Source of the DNA: Escherichia coli
Lineage (GTDB): Bacteria > Pseudomonadota > Gammaproteobacteria > Enterobacterales > Enterobacteriaceae
NCBI RefSeq assembly: GCF_041248615.1
Contig: NZ_CP158426.1
DNA length: 64,000 nucleotides
Reading direction: 5' to 3' (one strand)
The position numbers and the translations under genes are program-made. The notes under the pieces are model-generated. The model saw nothing but the letters and a program-made list of their open reading frames with translations, had not been told where the DNA came from and ran no database searches. This document shows, piece by piece, positions 833-13,003 of the stretch (positions within the stretch are counted from its first letter, which is position 1; every line of letters begins with the position of its first letter).

Positions 833-1984
833 TTATTCAACTTCATCGTAATAAATCTCCCATTGATCATTCATACCAACAACCTGCTTTTCCTCGTAAA
901 TATACTGAACCTTGTCAATTTCTATTACTTTTGATGAACCATCTATAAATTCCATACATGAAGGATTAAAAACAACCAAGTTCTTACCTTTACCAACTGT
1001 ACTTGAAAATTGTATACCATCATACCCCTCTTTCCTTATACAATCAGATATTAGTTGGGACACACTATATCTTCCTTCTAAGGAAGGTGGAGTTGCAGTA
1101 TTAAAAATACCTGCCATCTTTGCATATGGTATCATGGATAATAAACTTTCATCACTCTCAATAAACTCTAAAAAATTAGGATAAGAAAAATCGAATACCT
1201 TTAATGCTTTTGCAACTCTAAATTTACCAATTGAAACAACATCTGTTGGATGAGGTCGAACTTCCGCAATTGCAGTATAACTATCTGTAGCACAATAAAG
1301 GTAAGAAACGCCTGCTCTATTAGCCCTGCCAGCAGTAGCCTTTAGTGGTGGCACGGCTCCTATTTCCTTATCTTTAAATGGAACAAATATTTTCTTTCCT
1401 TCACGGCTAAATCCCCTAAGTGCTGTTTTATAGCCAGCAGTCCCAACTCTGGCTCTATATACCACAGAACTTCCTTCTATTATCTTCGAAAAAATATCAC
1501 CATAACCTTTTATAATACTTCTTAGCTCACCTTCAAAATCATGGTAATTCTTTTCTGAAAGCTGTTTTGACAAAGAATCTAAAAATGGCTGATGTGCATT
1601 TCTGATAGACATATATGGCGTATTATATAGACCATCAGATCCATAGCCTGCATAAATATTTATTCCCTCACTATCAAATGCCATATCCCACAATTCGCTA
1701 TCGAGTTCCCCAAAAGATTCATCATGCTCCTGTATATCCTTGGTGAAAATAAAATCATCTTCCAATAGAAAACTCGGGTAATACTCCCCTCCAAAATGAG
1801 TATTGTAATCGACTTCATCATAATGATATCTCAGAATAGCTTTCAACAAATTACGTACTTCTGAAGAATCAGTATCTAAACAAACAGTATCTGCACAACA
1901 AAAAGCACAAATACCTCGTATATTTTGCGAAAAAATTAGTTTTTTTATATTTGATTCAACAATGTGACTTTCGCAGATATACAT
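833..1984 (-). CDS. RES-domain protein with Cys/His-rich N-terminal domain (putative NAD+-targeting toxin / abortive-infection effector); AT-rich cargo gene
   Basis: C-terminal half carries the RES signature: VYRAR, AGRANRAGVSYLYCATDSYTAIAEVRPH (R..N..G...LY.A.......E) and DGIQFSSTVGKGKNLVVFNP (conserved Ser, N.vvF). N-terminus has C-x20-C-x2-CC-x4-C. AGGAG sits 6 nt upstream of the second ATG (1984). Markedly AT-rich versus flanking phage genes. Confidence 0.6.
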   Translation of the reverse strand: MYICESHIVESNIKKLIFSQNIRGICAFCCADTVCLDTDSSEVRNLLKAILRYHYDEVDYNTHFGGEYYPSFLLEDDFIFTKDIQEHDESFGELDSELWDMAFDSEGINIYAGYGSDGLYNTPYMSIRNAHQPFLDSLSKQLSEKNYHDFEGELRSIIKGYGDIFSKIIEGSSVVYRARVGTAGYKTALRGFSREGKKIFVPFKDKEIGAVPPLKATAGRANRAGVSYLYCATDSYTAIAEVRPHPTDVVSIGKFRVAKALKVFDFSYPNFLEFIESDESLLSMIPYAKMAGIFNTATPPSLEGRYSVSQLISDCIRKEGYDGIQFSSTVGKGKNLVVFNPSCMEFIDGSSKVIEIDKVQYIYEEKQVVGMNDQWEIYYDEVE

Positions 1985-2044
1985 CATAATCTCCTTGAAT
2001 TTTACCTTACATGCTCATTATTGCCACTTTAGCTTGCGCGCGCA

Positions 2045-2349: not shown

Positions 2350-4242
2350 TTAATTTGTCCCATCACTAAAGAATTTGATTGCGTCAGTTAGTACATAGTC
2401 AATGAAAAATTTTACGTGAAAGACCTGAAAAACGCTATTTTCTGAGTTTTTAATGAAATCTACAGCTATATCTTTTAGGTTGATCAACCAGTTATATTCT
2501 TCAATCAGTCTAGTTCTGGCATCCGCATCAGAATAACGACTCCGTAAGCTAAATGCCAGTTTCCTCATGATAACTGGATCAAGTTTCCTATAGCTTTCAA
2601 TGAAAACATCAGCAGGAACTAAGTGTAAAAAAGGTACATCATGAAGATTTAACTGTCTATTATTAGAATGACTCAATTCAGATAACAACGATAATTTTCC
2701 CCTTTGTAACTCATCTCTGAACTGCAATGCAAATTCCGAAATTGAATCATCAAACCGTTTCTTCCTTTCTATTTTAATATGTTCAATAATGAGCTTAAAG
2801 TCATCACTATCCCTGTCAAGAAAACCTAAACCACGCCATGCCCTTAATTCGTTATAATGTGTTTGCGCATATTCCTTATGTACATCTTCAGCTCTAAGTC
2901 TATTATAATAATTATTTATATTCTGTTTTGTCTCATTTATGAGATCATGAACATCATCTGTTGTTAGACCTTCTTTCGCCATTTCCAGCAAAATACTCGC
3001 TGTCATCAGAAGTTCACCTAAGGAAGTGATCTTACCTGAAAACAGGTTATCCTTAGCAATAGCGTACTGCTCATAAAGCATAGTTTCATTTAGTTCTCTA
3101 TAGTTCCACAAATACTCCCATGCTTGGGAATCGCTGCTTCTAAAAAATCGCGTAATATCCAACTGAGCAAGAAGATCACCCGTTACCTTTCCATCACAGA
3201 TTAGTTCTCTCCAAGACGCACCATCCAGTAACTTCTCGGTTAATACAGGAGACGAATATTTCTCGACAATCATGTCATACTTACTTTTGACACGTTCTTT
3301 ACCCAAAAACATACCATAATTAACATTGCCGATTGAATTGAAATCCTCGTAACTAAGATTCCCTCCCCGGTACTCCATCGAAAAAATTAACAATTGATGA
3401 AAAAACACCCTTATAAATTCATCGTTACTTACATATTTATCTCCCAAAAGGGAAATAATTCGTTGTACATCGAGAAAGAACTGCCTCAAGTGTCTTAGAT
3501 TATTATAATTCGCTGACACATAGAGGTCCTCTATTGTCTGCATATCTTCTTTAAATATATTAGCAACATGCAAACTACTAATTACGTTCAAAAAAATCTT
3601 ACAAGCACTATGTAAATCTGACGTTACTTCAAATGTTTTACCTACTAGCTTTTCTTTTGTTCTCATGTATTCATTGCGAGATTTCTCATCATCATTATTT
3701 ATTCGCTTTTCTCTATTGATTATTTCATCTTCATTGGCAACCAAGATCGCTTTGTATCCGTTTACCTCTACAAAGTGATTTATATATCCAAATAAGATTG
3801 GTAAATCTACACCAGCTCTCTCGACATCATCAAAGACCAGCACAAAACCATCTGGTTTTCTAGTAAAGTCGCTAAGATTAATGGTGGGAACATTGCTATT
3901 GACATCTACGTCAGATTTATTATCGCCATTAAGATCGATCTTGAAAGTAGCCTTAAGCGTATTTTTTAGTACATTTGCACCAAAGATAAGGGCTTTGTTT
4001 GATAGGACAGGATGCAGTTGACGATAGAACTCATCTTCAATCTGCTCAATAGAGTTGACGCCATACAAGCTCACTTTTAGAAATTTGAACTCTGAATGTT
4101 TCTGCCTATATTCTTCAAGAACTCGTTCAATGAACCAAGTTTTACCTGATCCCCAAGCACCTTTAAGCATAATGGCGTATTGAGGTTCAGTTTTAAGGCT
4201 AAGGTAATATTCTAGATAGTCTTTGATGTACGTATTGTGCAT
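2350..4242 (-). CDS. KAP-family P-loop NTPase (candidate anti-phage defence cargo in the tin/old-equivalent hotspot)
   Basis: Walker A GAWGSGKT in the KAP-type GxWGxGK[ST] context and Walker B-like hhhhDDVER (VLVFDDVER); about 630 aa. AT-rich. Start taken at the MHNTY Met (4242); the track ORF extends to 4293 with no RBS. Confidence 0.65.
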   Translation of the reverse strand: MHNTYIKDYLEYYLSLKTEPQYAIMLKGAWGSGKTWFIERVLEEYRQKHSEFKFLKVSLYGVNSIEQIEDEFYRQLHPVLSNKALIFGANVLKNTLKATFKIDLNGDNKSDVDVNSNVPTINLSDFTRKPDGFVLVFDDVERAGVDLPILFGYINHFVEVNGYKAILVANEDEIINREKRINNDDEKSRNEYMRTKEKLVGKTFEVTSDLHSACKIFLNVISSLHVANIFKEDMQTIEDLYVSANYNNLRHLRQFFLDVQRIISLLGDKYVSNDEFIRVFFHQLLIFSMEYRGGNLSYEDFNSIGNVNYGMFLGKERVKSKYDMIVEKYSSPVLTEKLLDGASWRELICDGKVTGDLLAQLDITRFFRSSDSQAWEYLWNYRELNETMLYEQYAIAKDNLFSGKITSLGELLMTASILLEMAKEGLTTDDVHDLINETKQNINNYYNRLRAEDVHKEYAQTHYNELRAWRGLGFLDRDSDDFKLIIEHIKIERKKRFDDSISEFALQFRDELQRGKLSLLSELSHSNNRQLNLHDVPFLHLVPADVFIESYRKLDPVIMRKLAFSLRSRYSDADARTRLIEEYNWLINLKDIAVDFIKNSENSVFQVFHVKFFIDYVLTDAIKFFSDGTN

Positions 4243-9455: not shown

Positions 9456-9965
9456 TCACAGCAAACCGAATGAAGCACCGAGGCCAGTCACGGTATCAAC
9501 TGCACTCGCCATCGCAGGGTTAGCCTGTAAACGGGCCTGCAATGAAACAGCAGCCAGCGCCATCAGTCGTGTTACAGAGTTAATGCTGCTGATAGCATCA
9601 CGACGACCTGCACTGGTTTTTACATCGCCAGATACCGCACCTGCAGCAACACGCCCGATCTCTGCGGTTGCACTCATGACGTAATGCGGCAGTTTCTCTT
9701 TTGCTACCTCATTAATCGGAACACATGGCAGGCAGTGAATCTGTGCCAGAAAACCATCTACCAGCGTTGAATCTTCAGTCAGATCGGTAAGCAACCAAAT
9801 TTCTGGTGCGGTTAATAAATGAGGTTGAGCTGGGTTCAGTTTGTTCCGCAGAATCTGCACATTCATACCTGCACGTTCTGCCAGTTGCACCAGATTGTGG
9901 CGCAGTGCGAATGCACGACAGGCTTCATCAAAATGTGGATGTTTGGAAACTTGGTAATCAAACAT
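9456..9965 (-). CDS. CII-like lysogeny-establishment transcriptional activator (phage 186 CII family)
   Basis: N-terminus [24 protein letters not shown]...[25 protein letters not shown] closely matches the recalled 186 CII sequence; first gene-pair position of the lytic operon. Confidence 0.8.
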
Positions 9966-9997
9966 GGTCAATGCCTCTGATGTATTTCAGAATCGAA

Positions 9998-10219
9998 CTA
10001 ATTAAGGTTTAGATTGCATTCTGAAAGCGCATCAACGGTCATGGCTGCTATGTTGATCATCACTTTTTCGCGTTTTTTATCTTTGCGCAAACGGTGACGG
10101 ATAAGGCGTCCATCAGCCAACATGTCATTGATGGTATCGATGGACAGCCCTGTCAGCTCGCTATAGCGTTCAATAGTCACATGAGGCGTGGTAAGAGTGA
10201 TTGAAATGTTAGGTCTCAT
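9998..10219 (-). CDS. Apl/Cox-like excisionase and lytic-operon repressor
   Basis: 73-aa basic protein, first gene of the lytic operon and divergent from CI, as apl/cox in 186/P2. Confidence 0.55.
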
Positions 10220-10344
10220 GATGCAACATTCCTCGTTTAATGATGATTAATCAGGACGAATACGGATCGTTTGTATTTTGTGAACACCATAAACATACGA
10301 TCGCACAATGAAATCGTCAAGACAAAAGTTCACTTGGAGTGACC
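10220..10344. promoter_or_regulatory. Immunity switch region between apl and cI (expected pR/pL promoters and CI operators)
   Basis: 125-bp divergent intergenic region containing repeated ACGATCG-type elements; assignment by analogy to 186. Confidence 0.45.
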
Positions 10345-10914
10345 ATGAATTTGGAGAAAGGCGGACGAGGCGCTATAGAGCGCATGGTAGAAGCTTATGG
10401 ATTCAAGACTCGACAGGCGTTGTGCGATCATTTAGGAATCTCTAAAAGTACACTCGCCACACGCTACATGCGTGACTCATTCCCCGCAGAATGGGTAATC
10501 CAGTGCGCCCTTGAAACGGGCACCTCGCTTAATTGGCTCACAACCGGGCATGGTTCAAAGCAAACTTCAGGTAATACAAATACTATGGAAGTTGCTAAAT
10601 ATGTATTATCTGATGGGGCCTTGTGTGAAGACGGTTTTTATATTTTCGATAGGGGATTTCTACCGTCGGCATTCAAGAGTCTTTTTGTAATCACAGATAA
10701 TAATTCTGAATGTATTTGTGATAAGGAATTTGATGATATACGTGATGGTAAATGGGTAATAAGTATTGATGGTGAAATAACGATCCGTGACATTACTCGT
10801 TTACCCGGCGGAAGAATCTTCGTCGAGGGTGGAAACAGAGCGTTCGAATGCAAGATAGAAGACATTGAAATAATTGGTAAAATTATAAGTTTAACAGTCA
10901 AGTATGTTAAATAG
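10345..10914 (+). CDS. CI immunity repressor (phage 186 CI family)
   Basis: ERMVEAYGF...CALETGTSLNWLTTGHG...GKWVISIDGEITIRDITRLPGGRIFVEGGNRAFECKIEDIEIIGKII parallels the recalled 186 CI sequence; GGAG RBS before ATG at 10345 (track ORF starts at GTG 10339). Confidence 0.85.
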   Translation: MNLEKGGRGAIERMVEAYGFKTRQALCDHLGISKSTLATRYMRDSFPAEWVIQCALETGTSLNWLTTGHGSKQTSGNTNTMEVAKYVLSDGALCEDGFYIFDRGFLPSAFKSLFVITDNNSECICDKEFDDIRDGKWVISIDGEITIRDITRLPGGRIFVEGGNRAFECKIEDIEIIGKIISLTVKYVK

Positions 10915-10929
10915 TACCGGGAGGAAACT

Positions 10930-11121
10930 ATGCTTGGTAAGGTATTTTTTGTGGTTTTGTCATGTTCTTTGTTATTAAACCCACTAACTACCTATGCTAG
11001 AAATTATCCCTGTTCAGGGAAAAAGGGAGGTGTTTCTCACTGTACCTCAGATGGCAAATTCGTTTGCAATGATGGAACTATTAGTAAATCCAAAAAAATC
11101 TGTACTAAAAACTCACGATAA
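10930..11121 (+). CDS. Small secreted Cys-containing peptide (possible moron) between cI and int
   Basis: 63 codons; strong RBS GGGAGG 6 nt before ATG; N-terminal signal-peptide-like segment ([23 protein letters not shown]) followed by about 40 residues with four Cys and many Lys. Confidence 0.5.
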
Positions 11122-11309
11122 CTTTTGCTTTTATATCTGCGCCTAAAATAAAAATGAGCCGCAGGTTAACCGCAAAAGTTACATGCTCACATAGCAAAAA
11201 GAATAGCCAACTTAATTATGGCTTCAGTGAGATGTATGGTCGTAGGATTTCATACATTGACACTGGTTATACATACAGTGAAAATGCTCTCTACTGGAGG
11301 GCATTTTTT

Positions 11310-12362
11310 ATGGCAGTACGAAAACTCACCACAGGGAAATGGCTTTGCGAATGTTACCCCGCCGGACGTAATGGGCGTCGTGTGCGTAAACAATTCGCCA
11401 CCAAAGGCGAAGCACTGGCCTTCGAGCGATACACCATGGGGGAAATAGAAGCAAAGCCCTGGCTGGGCGAATCAGTGGATCGTCGGACACTGAAAGATAT
11501 GGTTGAGCTATGGTTCAAATTACATGGCAAATCTCTTACTGCCGGACAGCATGTCTACAACAAGCTGCTGTTGATGGTTGACGCCTTGGGAAATCCCCTT
11601 GCAACTGATCTCACCTCAAAAATGTTTGCTCACTATCGCGATAAACGCCTTACTGGTGAAATCTACTTCAGTGAAAAATGGAAGAAAGGAGCAAGCCCAG
11701 TTACTGTTAACCTGGAGCAAAGCCATCTAAGCAGCGTTTTCAGAGAACTTTCCCGCCTGGGTGAATGGACACTTCCAAACCCATTAGAGAAGATGCGCAA
11801 ATTCACTATCGCAGAAAAGGAAATGGCATGGCTTACACATGAGCAGATTATCGAATTACTGTCTGACTGCAAACGTCAGAACCCAATTCTGGCACTGGTG
11901 GTAAAAATATGTCTAAGTACAGGTGCACGTTGGCGAGAAGCAATCAATCTTGCTCGCTCACAGGTCACCAAGTACCGAATCACCTTTGTGAGAACGAAGG
12001 GTAAGAAAAACAGAAGCATCCCTATCAGTAAAGAGCTTTATGAAGAGATAATGGCGCTCGATGGGTTCAATTTCTTCACAGACTGCTATTTTCAATTTTT
12101 ATCCGTGATGGAAAAAACGTCTATCGTTCTCCCTCGCGGTCAACTGACACACGTTCTGCGCCATACGTTTGCGGCGCACTTCATGATGTCGGGTGGAAAC
12201 ATCTTGGCCTTACAAAAAATTCTCGGACATCACGATATAAAAATGACTATGCGTTATGCGCATCTGGCACCGGATCATTTGGAAACGGCGCTCCGTTTCA
12301 ATCCACTGGCAACGTTACCAAATGGCGACAAAGTGGCGGCAGCGGTTGGCATTACCCCGTAA
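11310..12362 (+). CDS. int: Phage tyrosine integrase
   Basis: Catalytic residues in TGARWREA, HVLRHTFAAH and MRYAHL; GGAGG RBS before ATG at 11310 (track ORF starts upstream at 11154); last prophage gene, about 100 bp from host rcdA. Confidence 0.9.
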   Translation: MAVRKLTTGKWLCECYPAGRNGRRVRKQFATKGEALAFERYTMGEIEAKPWLGESVDRRTLKDMVELWFKLHGKSLTAGQHVYNKLLLMVDALGNPLATDLTSKMFAHYRDKRLTGEIYFSEKWKKGASPVTVNLEQSHLSSVFRELSRLGEWTLPNPLEKMRKFTIAEKEMAWLTHEQIIELLSDCKRQNPILALVVKICLSTGARWREAINLARSQVTKYRITFVRTKGKKNRSIPISKELYEEIMALDGFNFFTDCYFQFLSVMEKTSIVLPRGQLTHVLRHTFAAHFMMSGGNILALQKILGHHDIKMTMRYAHLAPDHLETALRFNPLATLPNGDKVAAAVGITP

Positions 12363-12421
12363 TAACCACCACTGACCACCACATTAAGTTATTGTTTTTC
12401 ATCTAACTTATTGTTTTTATT

Positions 12422-12447
12422 AACCCATTTAGATAAGTGGGTTTTTT
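12422..12447 (+). terminator. Rho-independent terminator after int / att-junction hairpin (AACCCA-N10-TGGGTT + TTTTTT)
   Basis: Stem-loop followed by a six-T run; its 3' part TGGGTTTTTTGTT equals the recalled 3' end of the E. coli RybB sRNA terminator. Confidence 0.5.
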
Positions 12448-12466
12448 GTTATCTAAAATTTATCTA

Positions 12467-13003
12467 CTACCCTGCAACCCTCTCAACCATCCTCAAAATC
12501 TCCTCGCGCGATAGCGGCTTACGGTCGGTGACAAAATGCAGCGTCATCCCCTCAATAAACGCATCAAGCGCGCGGGCGGTTCCGGGTTCAAACCATTGTT
12601 CGAGCGTTTGCTGACTGCGCTGCATCCAGTTTTGCATTACCGTTTTTAATAGCGGTTTTCGGCTAGCCAGCGCGTAGAGCTGATACATCAGCTCCATATT
12701 ATCCGGCGTTGCAACCTGTGAGCTGTAGATCATATCGGTGATAGCCTGGCATGCGCCTTGAGCATCACTAACATCGCTAAAAAATGCCTGATATTGCCGG
12801 GACATGATCTCAGTAAAACTGCTGAACGCCTCCAGCAACAACTCATCAATTCCTGAAAAATAGTAGGTCATCGATCCCAACGGTACCCCGGCAAGGGTAG
12901 CAATTTTGCGGTGCGTAACAGCATGTATTCCATAAAGTTTCACCGCCTCCAGCGTGGCCTGGATAATTTTTTCTCGCCGTTGCGGATCGTTAGCGCGACG
13001 CAT
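12467..13003 (-). CDS. rcdA: TetR-family transcriptional regulator RcdA (YbjK)
   Basis: Trimmed to internal Met gives 178 aa, matching K-12; N-terminal TetR HTH; synteny. Confidence 0.9.

Follow-up and report, generated by a model that had tools for sequence, protein, structure and literature searches.

What does an Escherichia coli lysogen gain from a small extra gene placed between the immunity repressor and the integrase of its prophage? The question is raised by a 64,000-nucleotide stretch of contig NZ_CP158426.1 (assembly GCF_041248615.1; "the window" hereafter means this whole stretch), the first 12.4 kb of which belong to a 186-like prophage of the P2 family, forming its right arm, with rcdA/ybjJ next to the integration site. 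An open reading frame (ORF) of 63 codons occupies positions 10930-11121 of the plus strand. It starts 15 nt past the stop codon of cI (10914) and ends 188 nt before the start of int (11310), both genes lying on the same strand. Judged from its sequence, the product is almost certainly a member of the YdcA family, and it is very probably exported as a disulfide-containing mini-protein. The best explanation overall, a periplasmic role of the polyanion-binding or exclusion type, is offered here tentatively. As a kind of element the gene is familiar, being a moron that a P2-like phage carries in its lysogeny module. It is also already known, since the exact protein, a curated family and a RefSeq annotation have all been catalogued, a membership that the original prediction, made from the DNA letters without database searches, did not recognise.

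That the ORF is a genuine, selected coding gene is strongly supported. It can be regarded as real rather than as a chance frame because it is called in RefSeq (WP_000900883.1, 'YdcA family protein'), because it scores 115.8 bits against the NCBIfam model NF007463 (cut-off 93), covering profile positions 1-58 of 58, and because its non-synonymous variation is low relative to its synonymous variation. In the mature part, the proportion of differing synonymous sites (pS) among five E. coli alleles ranges from 0.09 to 0.49 and that of non-synonymous sites (pN) from 0 to 0.023; for the more divergent allele pairs pS is 0.31-0.49, and pairs with differences at 22-49% of synonymous sites have them at 0-2.3% of non-synonymous ones. 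This pattern indicates strong purifying selection on the 40-residue mature part. The near-ideal ribosome-binding site claimed in the original prediction, like the 63-codon frame between cI and int, is exactly as described: the Shine-Dalgarno sequence GGGAGG can be read at 10919-10924 (plus strand), with 5 nt between it and the ATG; four other alleles retain it in the form GGGAGG or TGGAGG, although third-codon positions around it vary.

Family membership is supported by further profiles. The protein matches phrog_6000 (E 1.9e-34), a PHROG labelled 'unknown function', and its homologs and cluster representatives match Pfam PF27300 'YdcA'. Against NF007462, the K-12-type model, the window protein scores 68.5 versus a cut-off of 118 and thus falls below it. 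A search of a local Pfam-A copy returned no significant match for the ORF (best E 0.11, GULLO2-like) because that older copy appears to be without PF27300. Three other candidate relationships were discarded. A suspected resemblance to DUF3761 was not reproduced by the Pfam-A search and was dropped. The match to the NCBIfam lpg1681 family was not significant (E 0.11) and was rejected; lpg1681 is a two-transmembrane protein linked to dsbD2 (PMC6598767). The 'ydcA' of plasmid pS88 encodes an unrelated methylase and has nothing but its name in common with the family. The exact protein sequence is found on at least 1000 contigs, and a profile of the mature domain recovers 334 cluster representatives at 50% identity from 1.84 billion proteins. 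A single domain is present in 141 of the 148 representatives examined. Mean domain charge is +4, and the C-terminal tails are net positive in 87 of 112 cases.

The N-terminus of the small protein has the properties of a Sec signal peptide, predicted from hydropathy and from the alignment of homologs to span residues 1-23 (10930-10998, plus strand), with cleavage likely after Ala23. Its n/h/c layout is that of a signal peptidase I substrate: MLGK, including K4, is followed by a 12-residue hydrophobic core and by NPLTTYA, with T-Y-A at positions -3 to -1. Hydropathy over residues 1-15 is 2.2-2.6. The alanine at -1 is kept in at least 90% of 26 homologs, while the rest of the leader is variable in sequence, and the domain starts 1-4 residues after this alanine in the alignment. 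A hydrophobic leader is present in 137 of the 148 family representatives, in which the median domain start is residue 25. The mature YdcA domain (10999-11121, plus strand; 40 residues and the stop codon; NF007463 and phrog_6000, with PF27300 on homologs) contains four cysteines, a fifth lying in the leader, and 7 Lys and 2 Arg versus 2 Asp, giving a net charge of +7, a pI of 9.7 and a mass of 4.3 kDa. Residues P27, C28, S29, K32, G33, G34, C38, F44, C46, D48, G49, S52, S54, K55 and C58 are invariant in the 26 homologs, and all are present in the window protein, which also shows the family pattern P-C-S-G-x-K-G-G ... F-x-C-x-D-G ... S-x-S-K ... C with its four cysteines. The AlphaFold2 model of the mature part is a confident one (pLDDT 83.7) and consists of a short helical turn and a beta-hairpin. 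A signal-peptide-like N-terminus followed by a Lys/Cys-rich mature part of about 40 residues with four cysteines, as first proposed, is therefore borne out.

The position of the gene bears on when it is expressed. The prophage genes follow the order portal, cargo hotspot, gpA, dam, cII, apl-like gene, cI, small ORF and int, and the immunity region that includes the small ORF is leftward-regulated. The 186-type immunity repressor gene cI (10345-10914, plus strand; 189 residues; RefSeq WP_033870828.1, 'phage repressor protein CI') is the first gene of the lysogenic operon, and its counterparts at homologous loci carry PF07022 and PF16452. The tyrosine integrase gene int (11310-12362, plus strand; 350 residues; WP_126680547.1) is the last. 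The 395 bp from the cI stop to the int start (10915-11309) hold the small gene and the 188-bp spacer. No terminator-like site is predicted on the plus strand from cI to the end of int. The sole plus-strand site of this kind predicted in 9900-12600, a hairpin with a T-run at 12422-12443, lies after int, in a place equivalent to that of the predicted lysogenic-operon terminator of phage 186. Since the plus strand is free of such a site between cI and the end of int, co-transcription from pL is the natural reading, and the small gene is probably expressed from this promoter in the lysogen. The annotated lysogenic operon of phage 186 has the same layout (pL-cI-int-orf69-terminator), which agrees with the location in the lysogenic operon proposed originally. 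In phage 186 itself, cI abuts int and no gene lies between them. This absence fits the earlier description of the ORF as a moron-like extra gene, as does its base composition: its GC content is 34.9% versus 49.7% for the whole window, and it belongs to a low-GC tract (10600-11300, no strand assigned; 35-37% in the composition profile) that extends from the 3' half of cI through the small gene and the spacer.

Within E. coli, the small gene is present in 647 of 5426 complete genomes (about 12%); those with most of the gene and those with most of the cI-gene-int block both number 627. E. coli ATCC 8739 is a natural lysogen with this allele (locus CJZ69_RS15225). IMG/VR contains 521 relatives. 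The 80 IMG/VR loci among the matches listed are all identical E. coli alleles, which document prevalence and position and add no diversity. Divergent alleles with other leaders occupy the space between cI and int in prophages of E. coli, Enterobacter, Hafnia, Yersinia and Pectobacterium, beside cI proteins of 187, 189, 203, 204 or 278 residues. Haemophilus phage HP2 (NC_003315) has an unannotated 60-residue YdcA ORF that begins at the stop codon of cI and is followed by orf1(S) and int (record positions 2486-2668, complement; locus L002, 3920-4102). The placement of YdcA genes between cI and int thus recurs across genera, and the comparison with related phages returns a gene that is conserved in this interval and absent from 186. 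In HP2, the orf1(S) product, a 254-residue signal-peptide protein encoded between the YdcA homolog and int (L002, 4112-4876), matches phrog_8545, 'superinfection exclusion Sie-like' (E 9e-9).

The interval between cI and int, or between int and the primase gene, of P2-like phages is known as a cargo and defence hotspot (PMC9122126; preprint 10.64898/2026.02.27.708500). For example, Klebsiella phage KP12 and E. coli phage 813R9 carry PD-Lambda-1 in the cI-int slot. Further cargo has also been found between ydcA and int, for example a 347-residue protein of unknown function and a KAP NTPase that corresponds to PDC-S20, a PADLOC candidate. In such arrangements ydcA remains the neighbour of cI and is separated from int by the defence gene; ydcA therefore resembles a companion of cI rather than swappable cargo. 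In Hafnia (L117, 3567-3998) and Pectobacterium (L120, 3547-3972), a protein of 141-143 residues is encoded between cI and ydcA instead. The translated Hafnia copy has a clear signal peptide, and neither protein has a PHROG match; they represent a further addition to the exported proteins of the P2-like cI-int interval. In Xenorhabdus, ydcA adjoins ogr at the prophage end. Homologs in phage databases belong to Moraxella, Acinetobacter, Haemophilus and Pseudomonas phages, some lying among structural genes, and others are found on Acinetobacter plasmids. Acinetobacter phage Ab11510-phi carries an unannotated YdcA-family gene (L004, 3917-4102). In Acinetobacter pittii, the 3.9-kb MOBQ mobilizable plasmid pApiMCR53a, with five genes, encodes a YdcA homolog (L031, 728-904) directly after a small 'TraD' gene.

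Longer members of the family provide a clue to function. In these proteins the YdcA domain comes first after the leader, as an N-terminal module, and nucleases are the only enzymes found fused to it. They belong to three families that are unrelated in fold: staphylococcal-type nuclease (SNase, two cases), DNA/RNA non-specific endonuclease (Endonuclease_NS, two cases and one more in AFDB) and a PLD-family enzyme (one case). Representatives with nuclease-type fusions include P0138, P0208, P0189, P0219 and P0214. N-terminal fusion to three unrelated families of secreted nucleases is a new observation. With three unrelated partners, the YdcA domain is more likely to be a module for substrate binding or localisation than a specific inhibitor. 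Other fusion partners are a PBCV-type basic Cys domain, a VasL-type domain and basic low-complexity tails. A second small Cys domain with the motif GPRGG.YC (Pfam PBCV_basic_adap) is a frequent partner.

The YdcA domain also bears a weak resemblance, likewise new, to one lobe of Dis2 (Lpg0823), a component of the Dot/Icm machinery of Legionella, which is a type IV secretion system (T4SS). Dis2 is the best PDB match of the small protein in sequence-profile searches (E 0.04-0.09), and in Foldseek the top matches of the model, 7mud_AN and 7muc_AN, are both Dis2 (probability 0.90-0.96, 38% identity over 37-39 columns). Comparison of the small protein family with Dis2 by hhalign gives a probability of 81%, and pairwise BLASTP aligns the window peptide to both Dis2 lobes (E 5e-6 and 4e-4). 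Moreover, a homolog 96% identical to Dis2 has a precomputed PF27300 match, and Dis2 starts directly after its signal peptide with ADGCCSKMGGINYCDSSAGRLVCNNGFYS. A wider profile of 69 sequences searched against the PDB did not improve the E-value of Dis2, and class A repeats of the low-density lipoprotein receptor scored equally; the sequence evidence alone is therefore marginal. P0081, a second family member with tandem repeats, had no Dis2 match in the PDB, and Foldseek against AFDB50 returned only family members with uninformative names. Dis2 has two similar lobes and five disulfides (PMC8486379). It is proximal to the outer membrane, is pinned by disulfides and contacts DotK, DotC and DotD, and it has been reported to be without structural relatives and without homologs outside the Legionellales (PMC8486379; PMC12716638). 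The YdcA domain seems to have been duplicated in tandem to give Dis2 itself (P0228; PDB 7MUC chain AN).

It seems possible, on this basis, to outline a mechanism. The small gene, co-transcribed with cI from pL, would be made continuously in the lysogen. The pre-protein would be exported by Sec and cut after Ala23 by signal peptidase I, and oxidation by DsbA would yield a periplasmic mini-protein of about 4.3 kDa with two disulfides and the fold of a single Dis2 lobe. Its Gly-rich CSGKKGG loop and its S-x-S-K-K patch may then bind a conserved polyanionic ligand of the periplasm or envelope. DNA would be the best-supported candidate ligand in view of the domain's fusions with three secreted nucleases that are unrelated to one another; the charge of the peptide also favours it. 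Alternative ligands, favoured by the similarity to Dis2, would be phosphates on the inward-facing side of the outer membrane, or lipoproteins of that membrane. Binding of DNA or of another polyanion can be proposed only with reserve. The prophage would in this way give its host a constitutive extra copy of a core protein and protect the lysogen at the envelope, the most probable benefit being hindered entry of foreign DNA. A benefit of this exclusion type is favoured because Glo of phage K139 occupies the same slot, because the next gene in HP2 has a Sie-like PHROG match and because other occupants of the slot are defence genes. The presence of a YdcA homolog on a 3.9-kb mobilizable plasmid belongs to the same lead. 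An exclusion phenotype of the small protein is nonetheless rather doubtful.

Several observations weigh against such a role. The nuclease fusions could equally mean that the domain anchors or localises the proteins that carry it. The enterobacterial allele was found in none of 50,697 deposited phage genomes, which bears on expression in the lysogenic cycle. No PADLOC-DB 2.0 family matched the ORF at E <= 0.01. For Dis2 no function has been described, and losing it produces only subtle effects (PMC12716638). Of 5426 complete E. coli genomes, 5415 carry the chromosomal paralog ydcA (b1419; cybB-ydcA-trg; L124, 2417-2590), and this argues for a general host role rather than a phage-specific one. 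The sole phenotype reported for ydcA is sensitivity to 3-hydroxypropionate; combined with induction by acid via YdcI, it suggests stress on the envelope or from acid rather than an involvement of DNA.

These last two points lead to the main rival explanation, nearly the equal of the preferred one although in itself somewhat unlikely. The prophage gene could be an envelope-stress conversion factor: it would supply a constitutive extra dose of the YdcA paralog to help the envelope withstand acid or organic acids, and would not act against DNA or phage entering the cell. Since the chromosomal gene is core, lysogens carry two differently regulated paralogs, about 74% identical in the mature part. 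Chromosomal ydcA has been reported to be acid-induced through YdcI, and a ydcA deletion makes E. coli W sensitive to 300 mM 3-hydroxypropionate (PMC7642389). In Moraxella-like genomes, moreover, stand-alone chromosomal homologs are located in housekeeping contexts. However, the 3-hydroxypropionate phenotype comes from a single report and is overridden by deletion of yieP (PMC7642389); beyond this paper, no functional study was found in the literature on YdcA, b1419 or PF27300. The stress explanation also leaves the tight linkage to cI across genera, the defence and exclusion cargo otherwise present in the same slot and the nuclease fusions without an explanation.

A broader version of the exclusion-type role takes the similarity to Dis2 at face value. 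YdcA mini-proteins would then be single-lobe relatives of Dis2 whose periplasmic ligand is DNA or the outer-membrane face of DNA-translocating machines, and they would form a periplasmic entry-exclusion class acting against superinfecting phage, conjugative DNA or transforming DNA. This generalisation is unlikely. A related explanation, slightly less likely still, is that the protein is a Dis2-like adaptor at the outer membrane, which docks on lipoprotein assemblies and alters an envelope-spanning machine such as a secretion system, a pilus or a porin complex, and which could change susceptibility to phage or conjugation. This idea is made conceivable by the similarity to Dis2, whose partners beneath the outer membrane are two lipoproteins, DotC and DotD, and the OmpA-like DotK. 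The cluster of the small protein bears the name 'Conjugal transfer protein' in UniRef, one homolog on a MOBQ plasmid is located just behind a small TraD gene, and one family member carries a VasL-type domain of the type VI secretion system. The UniRef names are automatic, however, and those of the E. coli cluster may derive from this TraD-adjacent plasmid homolog. The window peptide also has a single lobe and four cysteines, whereas Dis2 has two lobes and five disulfides, and the similarity between them is weak. No T4SS genes lie near the small gene, the surrounding 42 kb consisting only of prophage and E. coli housekeeping genes.

The original prediction had also put forward two more specific roles, and neither is sustained. 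Receptor-blocking superinfection-exclusion factors of the Cor/Llp type are lipoproteins, whose leader ends in a lipobox [LVI][ASTVI][GAS]C. The window gene does lie within the lysogenic operon, and residues 9-12 of the leader, V-L-S-C, are loosely lipobox-like. Yet Cys12 is only 12 residues from the N-terminus, too early for such a site, and it is not conserved: many homologs have no cysteine in that column, and those that do have F, I or V at -1, which the lipobox does not allow. An A-x-A-type site precedes the domain in all homologs, no known exclusion lipoprotein was recovered as a homolog, and PHROGs gives 'unknown function' only, so that this role is highly improbable. A secreted bacteriocin- or microcin-like toxin, suggested by a small, cationic, Cys-stabilised peptide with a leader, is the least probable of all, as the gene is flanked by cI and int rather than by genes for immunity, processing or export, its leader is of the plain Sec type and not of the double-glycine type, a near-universal chromosomal paralog exists in E. 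coli (5415 of 5426 genomes), and the domain serves as the N-terminal module of larger periplasmic enzymes.

Other features of the prophage arm deserve mention. The spacer before int contains a promoter-like site, TTGACA-17-GAAAAT (11257-11285, plus strand; 10/12 matches in a consensus scan), which lies 25 nt upstream of int. Other alleles keep this site, with TAAAAT as the -10 element, and it may be an own promoter for int besides read-through from pL. The window int shares 89% DNA identity with the int genes of Klebsiella phages KP12 and 4LV2017, the homology beginning at about window position 11232. A second promoter-like site, TTAACA-17-TATAAT (11/12), lies antisense inside the 3' end of cI and points into it (10882-10910, minus strand). 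Its -10 element is kept in the other alleles examined and its -35 element is variable in some; given the AT-rich surroundings, the site may be due to chance. No Rfam RNA families were detected across the window. The hotspot between the portal gene and gpA (the 'tin/old' region of P2) contains a gene for a RES-family NAD+ phosphorylase (833-1987, minus strand), which has no PADLOC match and no obvious annotated antitoxin partner. The hotspot also encodes a 630-residue P-loop NTPase (2350-4242, minus strand) with a match to PDC-S49, a candidate defence family of PADLOC (E 4e-156). The window as a whole is matched at 100% by the chromosome of E. coli NRZ14408 (NZ_LT599825.1).

Overall the finding is an ordinary one with modest follow-up value. 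The protein is widespread, with a prophage copy in about 12% of complete E. coli genomes and a core paralog in nearly all of them; it is extremely conserved and is probably made throughout lysogeny. New elements are the resemblance to a Dis2 lobe, the fusions to three nuclease families and the core status of the chromosomal paralog (5415/5426), and the leads that emerge are the linkage to cI across genera, the Dis2-lobe similarity and the nuclease fusions. If the protein were an exclusion factor or a periplasmic DNA binder, this would explain a frequent prophage gene and would give E. coli ydcA a role. If it belonged to an entry-exclusion class related to Dis2, this would provide a first functional handle both on Dis2 and on a core E. 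coli gene, and the class, widespread and so far unrecognised, would include the copies behind cI in 186-like or HP2-like prophages as well as those of small mobilizable plasmids.

The small protein can be compared with several known systems. Its closest relative is the E. coli YdcA protein (PF27300; NCBIfam group PRK10040, models NF007462 and NF007463), with which it shares a Sec leader and a domain of about 36 residues with the motif PCSGxKGG[VI]xHC. Unlike YdcA, encoded at the core cybB-ydcA-trg locus, the window copy is prophage-borne behind cI; it has a different leader and a net charge of +7 versus +5. With Dis2 it shares a signal peptide followed by C-x-K-x-GG-[VI]-x-x-C and VCN[DN]G..S, a small size, disulfide stabilisation and, as predicted for the window protein, a periplasmic location; it differs in its single domain, where Dis2 has two tandem lobes, and Dis2 is a stoichiometric part of a T4SS. 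The defence cargo of P2-like hotspots, such as PD-Lambda-1 and the PADLOC candidate PDC-S20, occupies the same variable interval, but that cargo matches PADLOC, whereas YdcA has no PADLOC match and, not being a cytoplasmic NTPase, is predicted to be exported. The functional precedent for the exclusion idea of the original prediction is Glo of Vibrio cholerae phage K139, annotated as 'periplasmic protein; involved in phage exclusion', a role that comes from the GenBank annotation and PMC4870250. Glo too has a signal peptide and lies in the slot PL-cI-...-glo-int of a P2/HP1-related phage. It is unlike the window peptide in its length of 137 residues and in not being Cys-rich, and the two show no sequence relationship (hhalign probability 0.15%). 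The likeness between Glo and YdcA would thus be an analogy of position and compartment only.

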